Source of the DNA: a virus | Taxonomy: Duplodnaviria > Heunggongvirae > Uroviricota > Caudoviricetes | Length of the DNA stretch: 35,712 nucleotides | Virus record (IMG/VR): IMGVR_UViG_2563366825_000016 | Direction: 5' to 3' (one strand) | Shown: in pieces, positions 2,298 to 21,787 of the stretch | How positions within the stretch are numbered: position 1 is the stretch's first letter | How the letters are laid out: every line of letters begins with the position of its first letter | Position numbers and translations under genes: made by a program | Notes under the pieces: model-generated | Database searches by the model: none | What the model saw: the letters and a program-made list of their open reading frames with translations, nothing else | Told to the model about the DNA's origin: nothing

Positions 2298-2489
2298 TCA
2301 TACCTGGTCTCTCTCATCTGCTTCTGCTTTCGCCACCATCATTTCCAGCTTTTGTGAAAGGGATGTGGCTAACGTATGAAATTCTTCGTCTGTTTCTACT
2401 GGTATTGGCACAAACCTGACTCCAATTTGAGCAAGGCTATGTGCCATCTCAATACTCGTTCTTAACTCAACAGGAGATGCTTTGTGCAT
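2298..2489 (-). CDS. Hypothetical small acidic protein (63 aa)
   Basis: ORF preceded by GGGAGG about 6 nt upstream of ATG; position equivalent to lambda ea-region small genes. Confidence 0.5.
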   Translation of the reverse strand: MHKASPVELRTSIEMAHSLAQIGVRFVPIPVETDEEFHTLATSLSQKLEMMVAKAEADERDQV

Positions 2490-4687: not shown

Positions 4688-4892
4688 AAAAAACTCCTGC
4701 CCGTAAGCTGGGCTGCTGAACATATTGAGACTTCTGCGCGTATTCAGGCGGTGGATGGCCGCCGGTTGTCATAACTAAGTCGCCTCGTTGAAGCGACTGA
4801 GGTATGAAGTGTTGAGTTGATTTCAGCTGGTCACACCGACGTTCACGCGTCCGCTTCACCCCTCGCACTCCCCGGAGTCTGCTGAAATTCAA

Positions 4893-5130
4893 GCTGCGGA
4901 TCTAAGCGGTCATCGCAACGGTGAATCAGGTGGTTGCCGTATCGTTGTGTTGTTGCGATATGGTGATAATAGCTATTGCTATTGGTGATATCAATACTTA
5001 TCGCTATTGGCTGATGTGTTTTGATATTAAATGTTTGATAGCAAAAAGAATTAATTTTGTGACTTGCATCGCATAGCGATAACTGAAGCGGGGGTTATGG
5101 TGGTTTTTCGAACGGTTTGTGTGATGAGGG
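4893..5130 (-). promoter_or_regulatory. Putative leftward early promoter/operator region (pL/OL equivalent)
   Basis: About 240 bp without a convincing ORF between the cI operon terminator and the early-left genes; contains repeated GCTATTG(G) at 4972-4978, 4978-4985 and 5003-5010, and a palindrome ATCGCATAGCGAT near 5068-5080; the 9-mer TTGCTATTG also occurs in the cI-cro intergenic region. Confidence 0.45.
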
Positions 5131-5163
5131 GGAGGCAAAAGAAAACCCGGCACGGTGGCCGGG
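5131..5163 (-). terminator. Intrinsic terminator downstream of the cI-moron operon
   Basis: Hairpin CCCGGC-ACGGTG-GCCGGG at 5146-5163; on the minus strand it is followed by TTTTCTTTTG; sits 9 bp after the stop of the 310-aa gene. Confidence 0.5.
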
Positions 5164-5171
5164 TAGCATCA

Positions 5172-6104
5172 CTATTCGATTTTTTTAACCATGTAGTTAC
5201 GTCGTGATGTTCCTAATCTTTCATTGTGAATCTCAGAAACGCTTACTACGAGCGATATTCGTTCACCAACTTTATATTTACTTTGAATTTCTCCTAACAT
5301 ATCAATCGGATAAGAAGCCTTTATTTTTCCAAGCTCGCTTGCAATCTCCAATTTCCCGTACATGGATAAAATAGCAAGTTCGCCTGATATATGCTCATCC
5401 GGTAGCTGAATGACCTTCGTTAAAGCTAAGCGAGCATTCAGTTTTTTTATATCTTCTGAAGAAATTGACACTTGTCTGGTACCATCACTTAAAGGTCCAA
5501 TCCAAGTAAGATCAAAGTTAAGACTATATTTTTCGCACTCATTTATGATGTTTTTTAGGTTAGCTGTTGATTGCGAACCAATTTCGGCAATTTTAGCCGT
5601 GAATGTTTCTTCATCAATGGATGAGAGTAGTGCAAAAATCTCCTTAACAGCATGACTGGATACTGTTTCGATGAGCTCGCAAGAACCAGTAGAAAAAGTA
5701 ACACCTAACTTCGTCGAACCTGGACGCAAGTCTGCCAATCTCATGTCTAATGATTTTTTAACATCAATCGGCACACGACTAGAATCTTTCCCAGATCCAA
5801 GTCGGTAAACTGCTTTCTGTACAAGGGATGCGAGATTACCTGAAATTACAGATAGAATATCTAACGGAATAGACCCGAAATCGACCAAAACACCTTTTAA
5901 TCTCAACTCCATGAAATCACGTAAAGGATGTTGGTTATCGATTGCACGTTGTCTCTCTCGGAGATCGCTCAGATGGGAGTCAAGTGATCTAAATATAATG
6001 TCATCAGCAAATGATCTCCCCTTATTTTGAGCAAGCAGATCCACATCGCGTTGAATGAACGCAATTCGCTCCTTGAGGGAGTTGAATGTTTTTTCTTCGC
6101 TCAT
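5172..6104 (-). CDS. Unknown 310-aa protein, second gene of a two-gene module downstream of cI
   Basis: Long ORF; start ATG overlaps the stop of the upstream gene (ATGA, translational coupling); GAGGGT about 7 nt upstream; AT-rich relative to the lambda-like flanks; no domain recognised from sequence. Confidence 0.8.
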   Translation of the reverse strand: MSEEKTFNSLKERIAFIQRDVDLLAQNKGRSFADDIIFRSLDSHLSDLRERQRAIDNQHPLRDFMELRLKGVLVDFGSIPLDILSVISGNLASLVQKAVYRLGSGKDSSRVPIDVKKSLDMRLADLRPGSTKLGVTFSTGSCELIETVSSHAVKEIFALLSSIDEETFTAKIAEIGSQSTANLKNIINECEKYSLNFDLTWIGPLSDGTRQVSISSEDIKKLNARLALTKVIQLPDEHISGELAILSMYGKLEIASELGKIKASYPIDMLGEIQSKYKVGERISLVVSVSEIHNERLGTSRRNYMVKKIE

Positions 6105-6574
6105 AACATTACCCTCACGAGGCCTTTAGGATTCTCCTTCCGATCAAAACCAAACCACCCTCTCCAGTAACTTCGCCTTTCACTATAATCGATTTCTGGA
6201 TGATTTTCAGGCAGCAAAAGAACGTCAATGCTGTAGTTTTCTTTAATAAAATCTCTATTTAACAATGAGCTAACCAATGGCATCAGCGTGTTTGGCAAAG
6301 AGTTTAGGGCCAAATAATCGACGACCACGAGTATATCTATGTCATCAGGTTCAGGTTTCTCTGTAGTGAATGAACCATCGATCCACACTTCAGAGAAACA
6401 TAGACACTGCTGATTAACAAGTTTAAATTGCTCAATAAGCTGTATAAAATTACAGTATAGCATACTTCTTCTAACGGATTTTGGGAAGGTGTCGACACAA
6501 AGAGACTTGATGCCATCACTATCCATATCATGAAATCCTGCTGTAAGAAGAGGTGGGAAGCTAGGCTTTTCCAT
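6101..6574 (-). CDS. 157-aa protein with nucleotidyltransferase-fold-like motif, first gene of the two-gene module downstream of cI
   Basis: AAGGA RBS about 6 nt upstream of ATG; motif WIDGSFTTEKPEPDDIDILVVVD fits the pol-beta-type nucleotidyltransferase signature G[SG]-x9-13-DxD; located 81 bp downstream of the cI stop on the same strand. Confidence 0.8.
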   Translation of the reverse strand: MEKPSFPPLLTAGFHDMDSDGIKSLCVDTFPKSVRRSMLYCNFIQLIEQFKLVNQQCLCFSEVWIDGSFTTEKPEPDDIDILVVVDYLALNSLPNTLMPLVSSLLNRDFIKENYSIDVLLLPENHPEIDYSERRSYWRGWFGFDRKENPKGLVRVML

Positions 6575-7710: not shown

Positions 7711-8256
7711 ATGACTATGCAACCACTTACATACCAACAGACTAGCGGATTTATCCCGACTGCGGTGATAAATCGTTCTCAAATAAAACAGGTGCCAGGC
7801 CACGAAAAAATCCGTGATGCCATCCGCGCCTGGTCGGCTGTAGATAATCAGGATGTCGTTGCCGCACTCATTGTGAATGAGTATCGAGCACAGGGCGGCG
7901 GCACTATCGATTTTCCTGATGATGTCAGTCGTGCACGCCAGAAGCTGTTCCGCTTTCTCGATAACAAATTCGATTCTGAAAAATACCGAAATAACGTGCG
8001 TGAACTGACTCCAGCAATTCTGGCAGTACTACCGCTGAAATATCGCGGCCACCTGGTTGAGCAGGATAGCTTCATGGCTCGGCTGGCTGAAATGGAAAAG
8101 GAACTCAGTGAGGCAAAACAGGCTGTCATTCTCAACGCACCACGCCACCAGAAACTGAAGGAGATGAGTGAAGGCATTGTGTCGATGTTTCGTGTGGACC
8201 CGGATTTGGCTGGTCCATTAATGGCGATGGTGACCACCATGCTGGGGGCAATATGA
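7711..8256 (+). CDS. 181-aa protein in the cII position (possibly YdaT-like regulator)
   Basis: ORF starting 24 bp after cro; family assignment is from vague recollection only. Confidence 0.65.
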   Translation: MTMQPLTYQQTSGFIPTAVINRSQIKQVPGHEKIRDAIRAWSAVDNQDVVAALIVNEYRAQGGGTIDFPDDVSRARQKLFRFLDNKFDSEKYRNNVRELTPAILAVLPLKYRGHLVEQDSFMARLAEMEKELSEAKQAVILNAPRHQKLKEMSEGIVSMFRVDPDLAGPLMAMVTTMLGAI

Positions 8257-10745: not shown

Positions 10746-11306
10746 ATGAAGAAGATAATATTATTAGCCATGATTATTGGTTCTTTAACAGGTTGCGCTA
10801 GTGTGCCACCATTGAATTTTTCAACACCTAACGTGGGAGTTAGCCAGAAAAAAATAGATGCTGAAATTAAGTCATTAACGGTATCACTTGCTCGTCCAGA
10901 TGAGCAGAAAGGGGATATCACTGCTGGTATGGAGGCTATAACTCCAATTTGGCGTGAATCTTTGCAGGAAGCACTCGACCGAATGACTATTTTTCGTGAT
11001 AGTTCACCAAATACGGTTAGCTTAAATGTTAAAGTGTTGGCTCTTGACGTTCCTGCTTTTGGTGTTTCAATGACAACTAAAGCAATTGCAAGGTATGAAA
11101 TAATCAACCGTGCGAATGGTGATATTATATATACGCAGGATATTGAGTCTACCGGTACTGTTCCAGCCAGTTACGCATTCTACGGTATTGTTCGAGCACG
11201 CGAATCTGTTAATCGCGCGGTGCAAAACAACATAACGCAGTTCTTGCAAGCATTAGAAAGTGTTGATCTTTCTCGTCCAATGTTTCCTGTTAGGGTAGCT
11301 AAATGA
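10746..11306 (+). CDS. Lipoprotein (186 aa) of unknown function
   Basis: Signal peptide with lipobox LTGC (MKKIILLAMIIGSLTGCAS); AT-rich; no domain recognised. Confidence 0.8.
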   Translation: MKKIILLAMIIGSLTGCASVPPLNFSTPNVGVSQKKIDAEIKSLTVSLARPDEQKGDITAGMEAITPIWRESLQEALDRMTIFRDSSPNTVSLNVKVLALDVPAFGVSMTTKAIARYEIINRANGDIIYTQDIESTGTVPASYAFYGIVRARESVNRAVQNNITQFLQALESVDLSRPMFPVRVAK

Positions 11307-11755
11307 AGCGATTATTCGTAATTGCTCCACTCTTAGTGTTGGTTGGATGCGCACAAAATATATCGCCAAATAGTTATTCTGTTGGCTCTGTGGGCATGGT
11401 TAATCGAACTATCGCTGGTACAGTTATTAGTGCTAGGGGGGTTGATATCAGTGGGACTTCCGCGTTAGGCGGGACTGCTGGGGCTGCCGTGGGGGCAACC
11501 GCTGGTTCTGCGCTTGGTGGGGGAGTTCGTTCTAATATCGTTGGTGCCGTTGGTGGTGCAGTCATTGGTGGTATTGCCGGGGCAGCAATCGAATCTTCAG
11601 CAACAAAACAAACAGGCATGGAATATGTTGTCGAAACTGAGAATGGGAATTTAATGACCATTGTTCAAGGCAAAGATCCGTTATTTACTCAAGGAAGTAA
11701 GGTCCTTGTTTTATACGGAAACCCTTCTCGCATAATAACAGACCCGCGTCACTAA
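11303..11755 (+). CDS. Glycine-zipper outer-membrane-type lipoprotein (150 aa)
   Basis: Lipobox LVGCAQ; long Gly/Ala-rich stretch GTSALGGTAGAAVGATAGSALGGG...GGAVIGGIAGAAI typical of glycine-zipper lipoproteins (SlyB / 17-kDa antigen type); 4-bp overlap with the preceding lipoprotein gene. Confidence 0.8.
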   Translation: MKRLFVIAPLLVLVGCAQNISPNSYSVGSVGMVNRTIAGTVISARGVDISGTSALGGTAGAAVGATAGSALGGGVRSNIVGAVGGAVIGGIAGAAIESSATKQTGMEYVVETENGNLMTIVQGKDPLFTQGSKVLVLYGNPSRIITDPRH

Positions 11756-13350: not shown

Positions 13351-13435
13351 AGTCAGAGATAACAATCAACTAATACTATTTTGTTGATTTTTGCTTGTAA
13401 TTGGCGTTCTGGTCTGATTTTTGTGGAGTAAGTTG

Positions 13436-13819
13436 ATGCGTGATATTCAGATGGTTCTTGAGCGTTGGGGAGCGTGGGCGGCTAATAATCATGAAGATGT
13501 GACCTGGTCGTCCATTGCCGCCGGTTTTAAGGGATTAATTACTTCAAAAGTAAAATCTCGCCCGCAATGTTGTGACGATGACGCGATGATCATTTGCGGG
13601 TGCATGGCCCGTCTGAAAAAGAACAACAGCGATTTGCACGATTTATTAGTAGATTATTATGTAGTCGGTATGACATTCATGTCACTGGCAGGTAAGCATT
13701 GCTGCTCTGATGGTTATATCGGGAAAAGGTTACAGAAGGCTGAGGGTATAATTGAAGGGATGTTAATGGCATTAGATATCCGGTTAGAGATGGATATCGT
13801 TGTTAATAACTCTAATTAA
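13436..13819 (+). CDS. quuD: Late-gene antiterminator Q (QuuD-like, 127 aa)
   Basis: Cys-rich zinc-binding region ([18 protein letters not shown]...) and position upstream of the lysis genes; matches my recollection of DLP12 QuuD; ATG at 13436 preferred over the upstream TTG of the track ORF. Confidence 0.85.
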
Positions 13820-13840: not shown

Positions 13841-13870
13841 GTTATTAAAAATGGGGCGTTGCAACGCCCC
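13841..13870 (-). terminator. Putative intrinsic terminator for the porin gene
   Basis: Hairpin GGGGCG-TTGCAA-CGCCCC at 13853-13870; on the minus strand it is followed by a U-run (complement of 13841-13852). Confidence 0.4.
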
Positions 13871-14008: not shown

Positions 14009-15106
14009 TTAGAACTGGTAAACCAGACCTACAGCAACGATGTCATCAGTGCTTACACCGAGTGCTTTAGTGAAGTCATTTTTGTCAAGCAGGTTGATTT
14101 TGTAATCAACGAAAGTAGACATATTTTTGTTGAAGTAATAGGTTGCACCTACATCAACATATTTGACTAAGTCCTGATCGCCCCATACTCCAAGATCCTT
14201 ACCTTTAGATTGCAGGTAAGCAACGGACGGACGCAGACCGAAATCGAACTGATATTGTGCAACAGCTTCGAAGTTTTGAGCTTTATTAGCAACGAAGTGA
14301 TCAGCAAATACAGTCATATTCTGGGTTTCAGAATAGGTAGTGGCCAGGTAAATGTTGTTAGCGTCATATTTCAGACCTGCGGCCCAAACTTCTGCATTTT
14401 TACCGGAAGCAAATACTTCAGGAAGAACTTTCCCTGCATTAACTTGAGTGTCGGTACGATCAGATTTCGCATAAGTTGCACCGATACCGAATCCTTCGTA
14501 TTCATAGGTAGCAGAGAAACCGAAGCCATCACCGTTACCTTCAGTGTAGTGATCGAAATCGCTACGATCGTTTTTGCCTTGGTACTGAGCAGCAAAGTTC
14601 AGACCATCAACCAGACCAAAGAAGTCGTTGTTACGATAGGTTGCAACACCAGTGGTACGACCAGTCATGAACACATCTGTTTGGGTCCAGGTATCGCCAC
14701 CGAATTCTGGCAGAACGTCAGTCCACGCACCGATGTCGTATGCTACACCGTAGTTACGGCCGTAATCGATTGAGCCGTAGTCACCGAATTTCAGGCCTGC
14801 AAATGCAAGACGGGTTTTGTCTTTGGAGGAACCTTGAGATTCAGCGCGGTTGCCTTTGAATTCATATTCCCACTGACCGAAACCAGTCAGCTGATCGTTG
14901 ATTTGGGTTTCACCTTTGAAGCCAAGACGGGCATAAGTAGTATCACCATCATCTGCATCATTAGAGGAGAAGTAGTGCTTAGCATTAACTTTCCCGTACA
15001 GATCCAGCTTGTTACTGTCTTTATTATAAATTTCAGCTGCCTGAGCAGACATCGCCATCAGTACTGATGCAGCTACAGCAGAAATTGCCACTGTTAATTT
15101 TTTCAT
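14009..15106 (-). CDS. nmpC: Outer membrane general porin (NmpC/OmpD-like), 365 aa, intact
   Basis: Signal peptide [29 protein letters not shown], typical porin beta-barrel sequence ending in the C-terminal ...VAVGLVYQF; uninterrupted ORF. Confidence 0.95.
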
Positions 15107-15534
15107 CGTGAGCCCTTTTTTTTGAACTATTATTAAAAAATGATGTCACTGCGCGATAAATATTCATCTAATCAATGTGATTATTTCAAGATGTAAGTTT
15201 TGGTTTCTCGTTTGATTTGTGAAGTAGATCTCTATTTTTATCTGAACTTTTTTCTATCGAATCCTATTTATAGCTCTTGGCTGAATAAAAATAAATCTAT
15301 TAGCCAATTTATATTAACGGCTGTTATTTATAAGTGCTCTATAATTTGAAGGTTCAATTTAAATCGGCTAAAAATAACACTGGAAATTATTTGTTGGTTA
15401 TTTGTTGAGATTTGCTTATGTATTTGTAGTGGTGTTTTCAATACTCGGTAGCATTCTCGCAAATATCATTTAGTGGTTTACGTACGTAAAAAATTGGTTA
15501 TGCTGTTAAGAGTGGTTACTTCGTCACACAGCTT

Positions 15535-15567
15535 AAACCCGCCGTCGAGCGGGTTTTTCCATTTTTT
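15535..15567 (+). terminator. Putative tR'-like terminator downstream of a late promoter (6S-RNA-type arrangement)
   Basis: Hairpin AAACCCGC-CGTCGA-GCGGGTTT followed by TTTCCATTTTTT, about 110 bp upstream of the holin start; the late promoter itself was not pinned down. Confidence 0.45.
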
Positions 15568-15975
15568 GAGTCTCGATATTAGCTGATAACCCAATACCTG
15601 AGTTATTCACTGACTCCGAGTCTGTTACGTTTCGTAGTATTCCCTCAATTTACACCCGCTTTGTCTGCGAGGTGGGGTTATGAAATCCATGGATAAGTTA
15701 ACAACGGGTGTCGCCTATGGCACCTCAGCAGGTAGTGCCGGGTACTGGTTTTTACAGCTGCTAGATAAAGTCACGCCCTCACTGCGTATTTTCATGAAAG
15801 GAGATCACTCAATAACTTCCATCGAGATCGGGTAATAACATTTGAACAGATCGCTGAATAACATCGATGGAGATCACTTTTGACTCATTTTGTTATTCAG
15901 TGATCTCCATCAATGTTATTGGAACTTCACAGGTGTGTTGATCTGTATCTTTTGCCATTCCGGTAAAGGATACCT

Positions 15976-17517
15976 ATGCCAACAGTTCCAATTTCTATGA
16001 GAAAACTTAAAGAAATTCTTAGGCTTAAATACGGTGTTGGACTCAGCCATCGACAAATTGGTCGTAGTCTTGCAATCTCCCCTTCCGTTGTATCCAGATA
16101 TGCTAATCGGGCGGCTCAACTTGGCATAAAGCAGTGGCCCTTACCTACAGGATGGGATGATACAAAACTAAAACATGCGTTCCTTCAGACCCAGGTTAAG
16201 ATGAAGAAGCACTCTCTGCCTGACTGGGCTACAGTACACCGGGAACTGCGTAATAAATGCGTGACGCTGCAGCTACTCTGGGAAGAATACTGTGAGCGTA
16301 ATCCAGGCGGTTTTTACAGCTATAACCATTACTGCCGGATGTACCGTGAATGGCTCAAAACCACTTCACCATCAATGCGTCAGGTACATAAAGCTGGCGA
16401 AAAACTTTTCGTTGATTACTGTGGACCTACCGTTGGCGTTACCGACCCTGAGACCGGAGAAATAAGAACTGCTCAGGTCATCGTAGCTGTTCTCGGGGCA
16501 TCAAGTTACACATGGGCAGAGGCCACCTGGTCTCAGCAGCTTGAAGACTGGGTGATGAGTCATGTTCGCTGCTTCCAGTGGTTGGGTGGCGTTCCTGAAC
16601 TTGTTGTTCCGGACAATCTGAAAAGCGCCACATCCAGGGCATGTAAGTATGATCCTGACGTTAACCCTACCTACCAGCAGATGCTTGAGCATTATAATGT
16701 CGCAGTTTTGCCTGCGCGGCCACGTAAACCGAAAGATAAAGCCAAAGCTGAAGTTGGCGTTCAGGTTGTTGAACGCTGGATCATGGCCCGAATCAGGCAT
16801 GAGATCTTCTACAGCCTTGCATCGCTTAATCAGCGCATTCGGGAGTTGCTGGAAAGACTGAATAACAAAATAATGCAGAAGTTGGGTTATTCACGTGCAG
16901 AACTCTTCATCCAGCTTGATAAACCCGCACTGAAGCCTCTTCCTGAAGCCAGTTACAGTTACACCCTGGTGAAGAAAGTCAGAGTTCATGCCGATTACCA
17001 CGTGGAAATCGACAAACATTACTACTCGGTTCCATGTTCGCTGTTAGGCCAGCAACTGGAAGCATGGATCTCCGGAGAACTGGTAAGACTCTTCAATCAG
17101 GGGCAGGAGGTTGCTGTGCACCCGCGCAAGCGTACTTATGGCTACAGTACCCGCAACGAGCACATGCCTGAAGCTCATCGACAGCATGCCACCTGGACGC
17201 CAGAGCGTCTTCTGGAATGGGCGGGGCACATAGGCAGTGAAACTCATAGTTATGTGCTTCATATACTGAACTCTCGTCCACATCCGGAACAAAGCTATCG
17301 CTTCTGCCTTGGACTCCTGAACCTTCATAAAAAATACAGTAAAGCCAGACTTAATGCAGCATGTGCAAGAGCTCTGAAAACAAAGGTATGGCGTCTGTCA
17401 GGTATTAAATCGATCCTGGAAAAAGGTCTGGATAAACAACCTGTTCAGGATCCAAAACCAGATCTGTTATCCACGATGGAACACGAAAACGTACGCGGCA
17501 GTGAGTATTACCACTGA
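15976..17517 (+). CDS. istA: IS21-family transposase IstA (513 aa)
   Basis: N-terminal HTH, DDE-type integrase core; AAGGA RBS; gene order istA-istB typical of the IS21 family. Confidence 0.93.
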   Translation: MPTVPISMRKLKEILRLKYGVGLSHRQIGRSLAISPSVVSRYANRAAQLGIKQWPLPTGWDDTKLKHAFLQTQVKMKKHSLPDWATVHRELRNKCVTLQLLWEEYCERNPGGFYSYNHYCRMYREWLKTTSPSMRQVHKAGEKLFVDYCGPTVGVTDPETGEIRTAQVIVAVLGASSYTWAEATWSQQLEDWVMSHVRCFQWLGGVPELVVPDNLKSATSRACKYDPDVNPTYQQMLEHYNVAVLPARPRKPKDKAKAEVGVQVVERWIMARIRHEIFYSLASLNQRIRELLERLNNKIMQKLGYSRAELFIQLDKPALKPLPEASYSYTLVKKVRVHADYHVEIDKHYYSVPCSLLGQQLEAWISGELVRLFNQGQEVAVHPRKRTYGYSTRNEHMPEAHRQHATWTPERLLEWAGHIGSETHSYVLHILNSRPHPEQSYRFCLGLLNLHKKYSKARLNAACARALKTKVWRLSGIKSILEKGLDKQPVQDPKPDLLSTMEHENVRGSEYYH

Positions 17518-17528
17518 TACGGGATCCA

Positions 17529-18278
17529 ATGATGAATCATCTTTACGAACAACTGACCGCACTTAAACTCACCGGCTTCCGTGATGCGCTTAAAAAGCAA
17601 CTTGCTCAGCCGGGCACATACCAGGAGCTGGGCTTCGAAGAACGCCTGTCATTACTGACAGCAGAAGAACTACCCTGCCGTGAAAACAGGAAGGCAGAGC
17701 GTCTGATCAAACATGCACGGTTCAGACTTAATGCTGAGTTATCAAAGCTGGATTATCGTAACAATAGAGGGCTGGACAGGGCCCTCATCCGTTCACTCAG
17801 TCAGGGAAACTGGTTAACCCTGAAACAAAATATTTTACTGACCGGGGCCACCGGCAGCGGTAAAACGTTCCTGGCATGTGCACTTGGTCATAATGCCTGC
17901 CGACAGGGATACAAGGTCTACTATTATCGCCTTAAAGCGCTGATGGAACAGTGCTATCAGGGGCATGCTGATGGAAGATACAGCAAACTTTTGACCAGGC
18001 TGAATAATAGCGATCTGCTGCTTCTGGATGACTGGGGGCTGGAACCTCTCTCATCAGAACAGCGTAGCGACCTGCTGGAAATAGTGGATCTGATGTACCA
18101 ACGAGGCTCAATCATCGTAGTGAGCCAGTTGCCGGTGGAAAACTGGTACAAAATGATCGGAGACTCCACACATGCGGATGCCATCCTAGATCGACTGGTT
18201 CATGGCAGTATCAAGATCGAACTTAAAGGAGAATCAATGCGGAAAATACAATCTCCGTTGACCGAAGGAGATCAGTGA
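17529..18278 (+). CDS. istB: IS21-family ATP-binding helper IstB (249 aa)
   Basis: Walker A motif GATGSGKT and Walker B LLLLDDWG; DnaC-like AAA+ protein immediately downstream of istA. Confidence 0.93.
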   Translation: MMNHLYEQLTALKLTGFRDALKKQLAQPGTYQELGFEERLSLLTAEELPCRENRKAERLIKHARFRLNAELSKLDYRNNRGLDRALIRSLSQGNWLTLKQNILLTGATGSGKTFLACALGHNACRQGYKVYYYRLKALMEQCYQGHADGRYSKLLTRLNNSDLLLLDDWGLEPLSSEQRSDLLEIVDLMYQRGSIIVVSQLPVENWYKMIGDSTHADAILDRLVHGSIKIELKGESMRKIQSPLTEGDQ

Positions 18279-18480
18279 AGGTAATTTAAAAACGGTTCTG
18301 TGAAAGTGACACGAACCGATCTCCATCGATGTTACTCACCGATCTCCTTCACGGTAATACGCACTCACAGTGGGCGGCAATTGGAGTGCTGGGTAGCCTG
18401 GTATTTGGCCTGCTGACGTACCTGACAAACCTTTATTTCAAGATTAAAGAAGATAAGCGTAAGGCTGCGAGAGGTGAATA

Positions 18481-18978
18481 ATGTCGCCATCATTACGCAA
18501 GGCTGTAGCAGCTGCTATTGGTGGTGGGGCTGTTGCCATAGCGTCTGTGCTCATCACTGGTCCGAGTGGTGACGATGGTCTGGAAGGTGTCAGCTACATA
18601 CCATATAAAGATATTGTTGGTGTATGGACTGTATGTCACGGGCATACAGGAAAAGACATCATGCTCGGTAAAACGTATACCAAAGCAGAATGCAAAGCAC
18701 TCTTGAATAAAGACCTTGCCACTGTCGCCAGACAAATTAACCCGTACATCAAAGTCGATATACCGGAAACAACGCGCGGCGCTCTTTACTCATTCGTTTA
18801 CAACGTGGGTGCTGGCAATTTCAGAACATCGACGCTTCTTCGCAAAATAAACCAGGGCGATATCAAAGGCGCATGTGATCAGCTACGTCGCTGGACATAT
18901 GCTGGCGGTAAGCAATGGAAAGGTCTCATGACTCGTCGTGAGATTGAGCGTGAAATCTGTTTGTGGGGTCAGCAATGA
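18481..18978 (+). CDS. rrrD: SAR endolysin (T4-lysozyme-like muramidase, phage-21 R type), 165 aa
   Basis: N-terminal signal-arrest-release segment [18 protein letters not shown] and catalytic E...D...T arrangement ([22 protein letters not shown]); matches my recollection of DLP12 RrrD / P21 R. Confidence 0.93.
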
Positions 18979-19436
18979 ACAGAGTAACCGCGATTATCTC
19001 CGCTCTGGTTATCTGCATCATCGTCTGCCTGTCATGGGCTGTTAATCATTACCGTGATAACGCCATTACCTACAAAGCCCAGCGCGACAAAAATGTCAGA
19101 GAACTGAAGCTGGCGAACGCGGCAATTACTGACATGCAGATGCGTCAGCGTGATGTTGCTGCGCTCGATGCAAAATACACGAAGGAGTTAGCTGATGCGA
19201 AAGCTGAAAATGATGCTCTGCGTGATGATGTTGCCGCTGGTCGTCGTCGGTTGCACATCAAAGCAGTCTGTCAGTCAGTGCGTGAAGCCACCACCGCCTC
19301 CGGCGTGGATAATGCAGCCTCCCCCCGACTGGCAGACACCGCTGAACGGGATTATTTCACCCTCAGAGAGAGGCTGATCACTATGCAAAAACAACTGGAA
19401 GGAACCCAGAAGTATATTAATGAGCAGTGCAGATAG
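18975..19436 (+). CDS. Rz: Inner-membrane spanin Rz (153 aa)
   Basis: N-terminal TM segment, coiled-coil body; ATG overlaps the endolysin stop; matches lambda Rz. Confidence 0.9.
19195..19377 (+). CDS. Rz1: Outer-membrane lipoprotein spanin Rz1 (60 aa), embedded in Rz in the +1 frame
   Basis: Lipobox VVGC and proline-rich PPPPPAW...PPPDW; wholly nested in Rz as in lambda. Confidence 0.85.
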
Positions 19437-21559: not shown

Positions 21560-21787
21560 TCATTTTGCGGGTCCTTTCCGGCGATCCGACAGGTTACGGG
21601 GCGGCGACCTCGCGGGTTTTCGCTATTTATGAAAATTTTCCGGTTTAAGGCGTTTCCGTTCTTCTTCGTCATAACTTAATGTTTTTATTTAAAATACCCT
21701 CTGAAAAGAAAGGAAACGACAGGTGCTGAAAGCGAGCTTTTTGGCCTCTGTCGTTTCCTTTCTCTGTTTTTGTCCGTGGAATGAACA
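21560..21787 (+). other. cos: cos site (cosQ-cosN-cosB); 12-nt cohesive-end sequence GGGCGGCGACCT at 21598-21609
   Basis: Sequence ...CGACAGGTTACG|GGGCGGCGACCTCGCGGGTTTTCGCTATTTATGAAAATTTTCCGGTTTAAGGCG... matches the lambda cos junction as I recall it; Nu1 begins 190 bp after the cohesive-end start, as in lambda. Confidence 0.9.

Follow-up and report, generated by a model that had tools for sequence, protein, structure and literature searches.

The window, i.e., the whole stretch of 35,712 nucleotides that was analyzed, is a part of contig KE136656.1 in the assembly GCA_000407805.1 and belongs to a lambdoid prophage at the intD/argU (DLP12) site of an Escherichia coli strain. In the late region of this prophage, a 2581-bp element with the genes istA and istB separates the first 34 codons of a class II holin gene from the remainder, and genes for a SAR endolysin and both spanins follow (Table 1). 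All of the coordinates proposed in a previous sequence-only reading of this DNA proved correct when the sequence and its translation were re-examined.

Table 1. Features of the interrupted lysis region (positions in the window)
Feature	Position	Strand	Basis
quuD-type late antiterminator Q	13421-13819	+	Phage_antitermQ, E = 4e-53; 100% identical to QuuD
Terminator-like hairpin followed by T-run, 115 nt upstream of essD	15535-15566	+	terminator scan
essD-type pinholin, 5' fragment (codons 1-34 and first base of codon 35)	15680-15782	+	sequence, translation
Chimeric 51-aa ORF (EssD residues 1-34 and 17 residues from IS left end)	15680-15835	+	ORF list
Target-site duplication CTCAC, left copy	15778-15782	.	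sequence; single CTCAC in empty site
ISEc12 (IS21 family), 2581 bp	15783-18363	+, co-oriented with phage late operon	nucleotide identity
Left terminal inverted repeat TGCGTATTTTCATGAAAGGAGATCAC	15783-15808	+	sequence
Left subterminal GGAGATC-type repeats	15800, 15869, 15902(-)		motif count
istA, IS21-family DDE transposase, 513 aa	15976-17517	+	rve, Mu-transpos_C_2; NF033546
istB, AAA+ helper ATPase, 249 aa from ATG 17529	17529-18278	+	IstB_IS21; NF038214
Right subterminal GGAGATC repeats	18318(-), 18341(-), 18267(+)		motif count
Chimeric 50-aa ORF (ATG in IS right end, 13 IS residues, EssD residues 35-71)	18329-18481	+	ORF list
Right terminal inverted repeat	18339-18363	-	sequence
Target-site duplication CTCAC, right copy	18364-18368	.	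sequence
Pinholin, 3' fragment (rest of codon 35 to codon 71 and stop)	18369-18481	+	sequence, relative comparison
rrrD-type SAR endolysin, 165 aa	18481-18978	+	Phage_lysozyme, E = 1e-45; 100% identical to RrrD
rzpD i-spanin (Rz)	18963-19436	+	Phage_lysis, E = 7e-54; 100% identical to relative
Rz1 o-spanin lipoprotein, within rzpD, +1 frame	19195-19377	+	Rz1, E = 3e-20

ISEc12 within the pinholin gene

Joining of the two holin gene fragments yields a single 71-aa ORF with its stop codon. This restored ORF matched the family PF04971 (Bacteriophage P21 holin S) with 121 bits (cut-off 26, E = 2e-35), and its product and the holins of phages 434, mEp460, PhiR30_1, and others share 100% identity; in the phage 434 annotation, the identical protein is designated both "antiholin" and "holin class II". 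A rebuilt empty site of 600 bp was found at 100% identity and full length in the essD-rrrD loci of many complete E. coli genomes. The earlier description of a pinholin gene split in frame and mended by exact excision of the element is thus borne out by the ORF, the family match, and the empty sites.

Comparison of both flanks demonstrated that the CTCAC duplication is exactly 5 bp long, the sixth base being mismatched. The ends of the element form imperfect inverted repeats (TGCGTATTTTCATGAAAGGAGATCAC vs. the reverse complement TGCGTATTACCGTG-AAGGAGATCGG), and the termini are of the TG...CA type, as the IS21 family requires (TGCGTATT...AATACGCA). The inverted repeats and the duplication previously reported were both confirmed. 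Additionally, the GGAGATC motif has 11 sites in the window, compared with 3.5 expected, and six of these lie within approximately 125 bp of the element ends.

The previous assignment of the element to the IS21 family, with istA and istB, agrees with the protein-level matches, as both proteins pass the curated cut-offs for the IS21 equivalogs: IstA scored 310 bits against NCBIfam NF033546 (cut-off 160) and IstB scored 268 bits against NF038214 (cut-off 200), the latter protein also matching the Pfam family IstB_IS21 with E = 1e-66. The istB start in public annotations is ATG 17532, resulting in a protein of 248 aa; the two genes lie on the same strand, 11-14 nt apart. At the nucleotide level, a full-length identity of 100.0% was reported to copies annotated as belonging to the ISEc12 family, and one mismatch in 2581 positions, with identical termini, was found relative to five sampled copies. 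The name ISEc12 is used here because identity is at least 99.96% to copies annotated by NCBI PGAP as "IS21-like element ISEc12 family", this annotation-based naming serving as a proxy for the ISfinder entry.

Full-length ISEc12 was found in 1366 of the 5426 complete E. coli genomes, and genomes having any match contain a median of three matching places. Perfect 5-bp duplications flank three of the five other sampled copies, at the same termini, and a 5-bp duplication has also been published for tssM::ISEc12 in ST131 (PMC10711316). The copy in the window shares with these ISEc12 copies the length of 2581 bp, the termini, the istA-istB order, and the 5-bp duplication; it differs in its target alone, a prophage holin gene, and not in the element itself.

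Pinholin fragments, lysis cassette, and late transcription

The 5' fragment of the pinholin gene encodes the dual start Met1/Met4 (Met1-Lys-Ser-Met4) and a weakly hydrophobic, SAR-like first transmembrane domain (TMD1), and these 34 residues are 100% identical to EssD of NZ_AP042701.1. The 3' fragment encodes the entire hydrophobic second domain (TMD2, including G40, S44, and G48) and the basic C-terminal tail. Hydropathy is approximately 0.1-0.6 for TMD1 and reaches a maximum of 2.1 over residues 36-53 for TMD2.

Like the S21 pinholin of phage 21 and EssD of DLP12, the restored gene has 71 codons, a dual start, two TMDs, and a basic tail, and in the cassette of the window, as in theirs, the holin stop overlaps the start of a SAR endolysin gene (here TAATG at rrrD), which is followed by Rz and Rz1. 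In contrast to S21 and EssD, the gene in the window is split after codon 34, leaving its TMDs on separate fragments. S21 itself differs from the restored protein, which is an allele of it with an identity that we take to be roughly 80-85%. TMD2 is both required for pore formation and able to form the pore by itself, and TMD1 sets the timing (bioRxiv 10.1101/2021.04.20.440580). The pores of S21-68 are described in the literature as small and lethal, with depolarization of the membrane and triggering by energy poisons.

Each fragment is a part of one chimeric ORF. The calculated Shine-Dalgarno duplex energies (dG) are -10.7 for essD and -11.7 for rrrD, both strong, and -4.5 for the 50-aa ORF with the 3' fragment, and the latter ORF was not called as a gene in public annotation. 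With its poor ribosome-binding site, the 50-aa chimera is probably not expressed. Among the possible products, only the 51-aa peptide, consisting of TMD1 and an IS-encoded tail, has good translation signals.

The intactness of the SAR endolysin and spanin genes, asserted previously, is confirmed by the domain matches and identities in Table 1. RrrD has a Gly/Ala-rich hydrophobic N-terminal segment, the catalytic residues E35-X8-D44-X5-T50, and its own strong Shine-Dalgarno sequence. The rzpD start annotated in relatives is ATG 18975.

The hairpin upstream of essD is placed like tR', which suggests, by analogy with lambda, that transcription of essD and of everything downstream, including the IS, requires antitermination by Q. 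In a consensus scan for the late promoter pR', the interval from the porin gene to essD contained no sigma-70-like site. Consensus scans, as weak negative evidence, also gave no plus-strand terminator-like site within the IS and no outward or hybrid promoter-like site at its right end. From lambda biology, we infer that Q-modified polymerase reads through the IS. Expression downstream of the insertion would be kept because late transcription in lambdoid phages is Q-antiterminated, no plus-strand terminator-like site was found in the IS, and rrrD has a strong Shine-Dalgarno sequence.

Host prophage and distribution of the allele

The window contains 33 kb of phage DNA, in which all 51 other genes of the closest relative were found to be full length and free of internal stops, and an exact cosN 12-mer is located at 21599-21610. 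The source contig ends 52 bp past the window, at tail gene L, so that K, I, J, and stf are off the contig. Within the window, the previous claim that cos, terminase, head, and tail genes through L are intact is therefore upheld.

The window is collinear with phage PhiR30_1 (PV340558.1) at 97.8-99.8% identity. PhiR30_1 is a deposited phage genome with E. coli C as the listed laboratory host; no publication on it was found, and its viability is judged solely from the fact that it was deposited as a phage and with a laboratory host. Together with prophages at the intD site, for instance in E. coli OkiPb01716, PhiR30_1 is collinear over the whole window at 97.8-100% nucleotide identity, sharing the integrase, immunity, replication, Q, porin moron, lysis cassette, and lambda-like head and tail regions. 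Three differences were found among these genomes. The holin gene is uninterrupted in PhiR30_1 and the OkiPb01716-type prophages, unlike in the window; OkiPb01716 and 13E0767 carry an IS3 near the immunity region, with an accessory gene on either side; and a short segment of the window (2302-2486) is replaced in PhiR30_1 by a methyltransferase module.

The left junction of the insertion was absent from the 5426 complete E. coli genomes, and thus the allele is rare; no matches to this junction were found in GTDB representative genomes either. The identical left junction was found in the isolate assembly GCA_017741445.1 and in one metagenome scaffold (ERZ28637415), and the exact sequence of the 51-aa chimera is present in both of these and in GCA_000407805.1. 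The right junction was confirmed solely in the source assembly, as the other two contigs stop inside the IS, and it had no matches in the JGI metagenome contigs. Disruptions of essD are rare in general, because uninterrupted genes of this type are nearly universal among the E. coli carriers: in 4261 of the 4274 genomes carrying one, coverage of the best copy was 80% or more.

In the metagenome scaffold (ERZ28637415), the identical junction is accompanied by four clustered SNPs upstream. A recurrent insertion hotspot was considered and rejected, since these SNPs are explained more simply by recombination or by assembly of mixed strains, and the target duplications of other ISEc12 copies have no common consensus.

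Origin and consequences of the insertion

On the sequence comparisons, the CTCAC-flanked insertion is not a chance pattern, because the empty site is 100% identical in many genomes and the left junction is present in two independent assemblies. No evidence contradicting the structure was found. The best explanation, and a very likely one, is that ISEc12 transposed once, and recently in evolutionary terms, into codon 35 of the essD-type pinholin gene. The insertion falls in the short loop between the regulatory helix TMD1 and the pore-forming helix TMD2, and severs TMD2 and the C-terminal tail from the promoter-proximal ribosome-binding site and the dual start. The pinholin would thereby be lost, while the SAR endolysin, spanins, and morphogenesis genes would still be expressed upon induction. 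Lysis would then proceed via slow spontaneous release of the SAR endolysin and would be later and less synchronous, but not abolished. The sequence-only reading considered the phenotype not obvious, which is a fair remark on a SAR endolysin, but the literature already predicts the outcome in the absence of a holin: SAR endolysins are released spontaneously, resulting in later, broader, and less synchronous lysis (PMC9239132; PMC9025707).

It is possible, if rather unlikely, that the prophage was already defective through lesions outside the window, for example in tail fiber genes or in regulation, and that the IS is a neutral consequence of decay rather than, as the sequence-only reading suggested it may be, the main lesion domesticating the prophage. 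The location of K, I, J, and stf beyond the contig end leaves room for such lesions; additionally, the closest complete relative has a frameshifted side tail fiber gene, and no N-like antiterminator ORF was found between kil and the next gene. A frameshifted stf is no bar to plaque formation in lambda PaPa, and PhiR30_1, collinear with the window and listed with E. coli C as a host, likewise has no annotated N. The full length of the 51 other genes also argues against previous decay.

Retention of pinholin activity by the split gene, through a TMD2-only pinholin of 50 aa with the 51-aa TMD1 peptide as an inhibitor in trans, is very improbable. The 3' ORF is indeed in frame and holds all of TMD2 and the tail, and S21-68 truncations without TMD1 still form pores, albeit transient ones (bioRxiv 10.1101/2021.04.20.440580). 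Nevertheless, its Shine-Dalgarno sequence is very weak (-4.5, compared with about -11 at real starts), no outward promoter-like site precedes it, public annotations leave it uncalled, and a holin consisting of TMD2 alone, with no timer, would be toxic at any meaningful expression.

Similarly little credence is given to a less ordinary reading, in which the induced prophage expresses istA-istB and spreads packaged ISEc12, or in which the split gives a two-piece holin with altered timing. Since the IS is co-directional within the Q-antiterminated late operon, induction could drive istA-istB and package ISEc12 into virions released by leaky lysis. With PhiR30_1 as a size proxy, the IS-bearing genome would be approximately 50.0 kb, or about 103% of the lambda length, which is within the packaging tolerance of lambda. 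If ISEc12 could be packaged and istA-istB induced, the phage would therefore be a vehicle spreading the IS.

Misplacement of a repeat during draft scaffolding is conceivable for a draft scaffold and a multicopy element such as ISEc12, but this extremely improbable origin was rejected because of the perfect 5-bp duplication of a sequence that is single in empty sites and the identical left junction in an independent isolate assembly and a metagenome scaffold.

The favored explanation, transposition of ISEc12 with loss of the pinholin, describes an ordinary loss-of-function IS insertion in a small lineage and not a new kind of system, both of its parts being already known. As in other cases of IS inactivation of prophage genes, an IS lies in an important phage gene with a perfect duplication and intact neighbors, and no mechanistic difference from those cases was found. 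The target here is a lysis timer, and with a SAR-type endolysin, its loss is predicted to be leaky.

The insertion accounts for the truncated 51-aa "holin" and the IS in the lysis cassette in the annotation of this strain. As a single rare allele, it leaves views of IS21 elements, holins, and prophage domestication unchanged. If the explanation is true, a lysis-timing defect is predicted for this prophage, and the significance is local: the locus would be a natural pinholin knockout upstream of a SAR endolysin gene, cut exactly in the loop between TMD1 and TMD2, which could serve as a control in studies of lysis timing.

Structure of the insertion in the pinholin gene

Re-reading of positions 15500-18700 with recomputed features bore out all coordinates of the sequence-only reading, in which an IS21-family element splits the holin gene of a phage-21-type lysis cassette. 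Direct comparison of the element ends, TGCGTATTTTCATGAAAGGAGATCAC on the left and CCGATCTCCTTCACGGTAATACGCA on the right, found the reported terminal inverted repeats, the right end being an imperfect reverse complement of the left. The flanking CTCAC duplication is exactly 5 bp long. Exact excision joins the two holin fragments into one 71-aa ORF, as had been claimed. Many complete E. coli genomes contain the rebuilt empty site of 600 nt (300 nt per flank with a single CTCAC) at 100% identity and full length, at loci annotated for the pinholin (essD) and the SAR endolysin (rrrD). Judged by its junctions, the insertion is a clean transposition.

The assignment of the split gene as a phage-21-type pinholin also holds. 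A Pfam search placed the restored ORF in PF04971 ("Bacteriophage P21 holin S", E = 2e-35), and many sequenced lambdoid phages have a holin 100% identical to its protein, among them 434, mEp460, Ayreon, and PhiR30_1. The identical holin of phage 434 is annotated as antiholin and class II holin. By the hydropathy profile, the insertion point, after codon 34, lies in the loop between a weakly hydrophobic transmembrane helix (TMD1) and a strongly hydrophobic one (TMD2).

Coordinates of the features discussed in the text
Feature	Window position	Strand	Remark
DUF1382 and DUF1317 genes	2302-2486		small genes
Interval between kil and next gene	4688-5171		
Accessory pair, first gene	5172-6104	-	
Accessory pair, second gene	6101-6574	-	Pfam DUF6932
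Gene in cII position	7711-8256	+	YdaT_toxin domain (Pfam PF06254, E = 6e-29)
nin-region pair	10746-11306, 11303-11755	+	overlapping
Terminator-like hairpin	13853-13870	-	past porin gene end
OmpD/NmpC-like porin gene	14009-15106	-	full length, 365 aa
tR'-like hairpin	15535-15556	+	terminator-like, with T-run; 115 nt upstream of essD
Holin ORF, 5' fragment	15680-15782		strong Shine-Dalgarno ahead of start at 15680
CTCAC copies	15778-15782, 18364-18368		
ISEc12 element	15783-18363		2581 bp
Holin ORF, 3' fragment	18369-18481		
cosN	21599-21610		exact lambda 12-mer

ISEc12 and the distribution of the split allele

Both element proteins match profiles of the IS21 family, in agreement with the proposed istA/istB content. 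IstA scored 310 bits against NCBIfam NF033546 (cut-off 160) and contains the Pfam rve and Mu-transpos_C_2 domains; IstB scored 268 bits against NF038214 (cut-off 200) and matches Pfam IstB_IS21 (E = 1e-66). By these matches, one ORF encodes an IS21-family transposase and the other its helper. The element could be named ISEc12 through copies called "IS21-like element ISEc12 family" in the NCBI annotation, which it matches at a reported 100.0% over its full length; direct comparison with five ISEc12 copies found 1 mismatch in 2581. Of 5426 complete E. coli genomes, 1366 have the full-length element, carried on chromosomes as well as plasmids.

GGAGATC-type repeats occur 11 times in the window (3.5 expected by chance) and cluster at both element ends, six of them within ~125 bp of the termini. 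This clustering fits with the multiple transposase-binding repeats carried by IS21-family ends. Of five further ISEc12 copies that were sampled, three have perfect 5-bp duplications (CCTGC, GCGTT, and CCCGC) at exactly the same termini. The remaining two have no duplication and lie between unrelated genes, which suggests later rearrangement. ISEc12 in tssM of ST131 is also flanked by a 5-bp duplication (PMC10711316).

An exact look-up found the 51-aa chimeric ORF of the left junction in three contigs. For contig KE136656.1 of GCA_000407805.1, the fetched 12,156-bp locus occurs letter for letter in the window, which makes this contig its source; the contig of GCA_017741445.1 matches the window without a difference and breaks off shortly after entering the IS. 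The third, a 674-bp scaffold of metagenome ERZ28637415 corresponding to positions 15160-15833, has the same left junction. Its four SNPs upstream of the junction, clustered at 15412-15461, could reflect flank recombination or a strain-mixing metagenome assembly; an independent insertion at the same base is less likely. No left junction was found in the 5426 complete RefSeq E. coli genomes or in a scan of GTDB representative genomes, and no right junction in a scan of JGI metagenome contigs. Because three contigs share the left junction and no complete genome has it, the holin::ISEc12 allele is real and inherited by a small lineage, yet rare. An assembly artefact is ruled out by the CTCAC duplication and the same junction in independent contigs. 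Genes of the essD type were found in 4274 of the 5426 complete genomes, and in 4261 of these the best copy reaches 80% coverage or more at a single place, so essD disruption is unusual.

Prophage context and accessory genes

The window begins with intD, adjoined by tRNA-Arg in relatives, followed by recombination genes, a cI-like repressor, cro, O, P, ren, nin-region genes, and quuD (Q). After Q come the porin gene on the opposite strand, the lysis cassette, bor, cos, and a lambda-like head and tail set to L. The claim that everything else needed for a lytic cycle appears intact stands within the window: all 51 other annotated genes of the closest relative (the prophage of E. coli OkiPb01716) could be aligned over their full length, without internal stops, and cosN is present. 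Identity to these genes is 100% in the left arm, except for the porin (99.7%), and 88-100% in the right arm. The claim does not reach the tail genes K, I, J, and stf. The last base of the window is the end of the L stop codon (~239843 of 239895 in KE136656.1), and the contig ends 52 bp farther, probably at an assembly break in tail genes common to several lambdoid prophages. These four genes lie beyond the contig end, and the insertion may be a consequence of prophage decay and not its cause, though this is the less likely reading.

The reading of an IS21-family insertion that splits the pinholin gene is supported. Once the IS is removed, Escherichia phage PhiR30_1 (PV340558.1; 47,390 bp), for which E. 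coli C is the listed host, is collinear with the window; identity is 99.4-99.8% in the left part and 97.8% in the right part. The two differ in a short module, where PhiR30_1 has a DNA N6-adenine methyltransferase gene (2342-2892) in place of the DUF1382 and DUF1317 genes. At the level of sequence identity, both ISEc12 and the essD/S21-type pinholin with a SAR endolysin are known.

Several accessory genes were also observed. The pair between kil and the cI-like repressor matches PDC-M63B and PDC-M63A, a candidate defence pair in PADLOC (E = 4e-42 for each), and occupies the position of rexAB in lambda. An IS3 separates the two genes in both of the closest complete relatives; the window has none. 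No N-like antiterminator ORF was found between kil and the next gene, where the minus-strand frames are all full of stops, and N is likewise not annotated in the near-identical PhiR30_1; early antitermination may therefore be different in this phage group. The gene in the cII position is not of the lambda CII type. The nin-region pair, one gene annotated as a YajG-family lipoprotein and the other (150 aa) with a weak glycine-zipper match, has no PADLOC match and looks like a lysogenic-conversion moron. The porin gene is a moron between Q and the holin.

Predicted effect on lysis

The strong essD ribosome-binding site (duplex dG -10.7) now precedes only a 51-aa product, in which TMD1 is followed by 17 residues encoded by the IS. 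The 3' fragment that is left, with TMD2 and the tail, has as its sole in-frame start an ATG in the IS right end with poor Shine-Dalgarno pairing (dG -4.5); a promoter scan found no outward promoter-like site at this end. In pinholins, the pore is formed by TMD2, whose activation is timed by TMD1, and truncations lacking TMD1 still make transient pores (bioRxiv 10.1101/2021.04.20.440580). The 3' chimeric ORF could thus, in principle, still provide some holin activity, though with such poor translation signals this is unlikely. Pinholin function is predicted to be lost.

The 165-aa lysozyme downstream of the holin (RrrD) is identified as a SAR endolysin by its hydrophobic N-terminal segment, rich in Gly and Ala, and its E35-X8-D-X5-T motif. 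It is followed by the i-spanin gene Rz (rzpD) with the o-spanin gene Rz1 embedded within it. As proposed, endolysin and spanins are intact; each is 100% identical to its counterpart in the closest relative (RrrD, RzpD). Late transcription in lambdoid phages is Q-antiterminated, and a tR'-like hairpin lies upstream of essD. Together with the lack of any plus-strand terminator-like site in a scan of the IS and the strong Shine-Dalgarno of rrrD itself (dG -11.7), this suggests that expression of RrrD, the two spanins, and the structural genes would continue upon induction; the late promoter itself was not located. SAR endolysins use the host Sec system for export and, without a holin, are slowly released spontaneously, with later and less synchronous lysis (PMC9239132; PMC9025707). 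Lysis is predicted to be delayed and gradual, not absent.

The finding is an ordinary one, IS disruption of prophage genes being a familiar way of prophage inactivation. What sets it apart is the exact site of the cut, which separates the regulatory helix from the pore-forming one in a pinholin whose partner is a SAR endolysin, and for this reason the knockout would be expected to be leaky.
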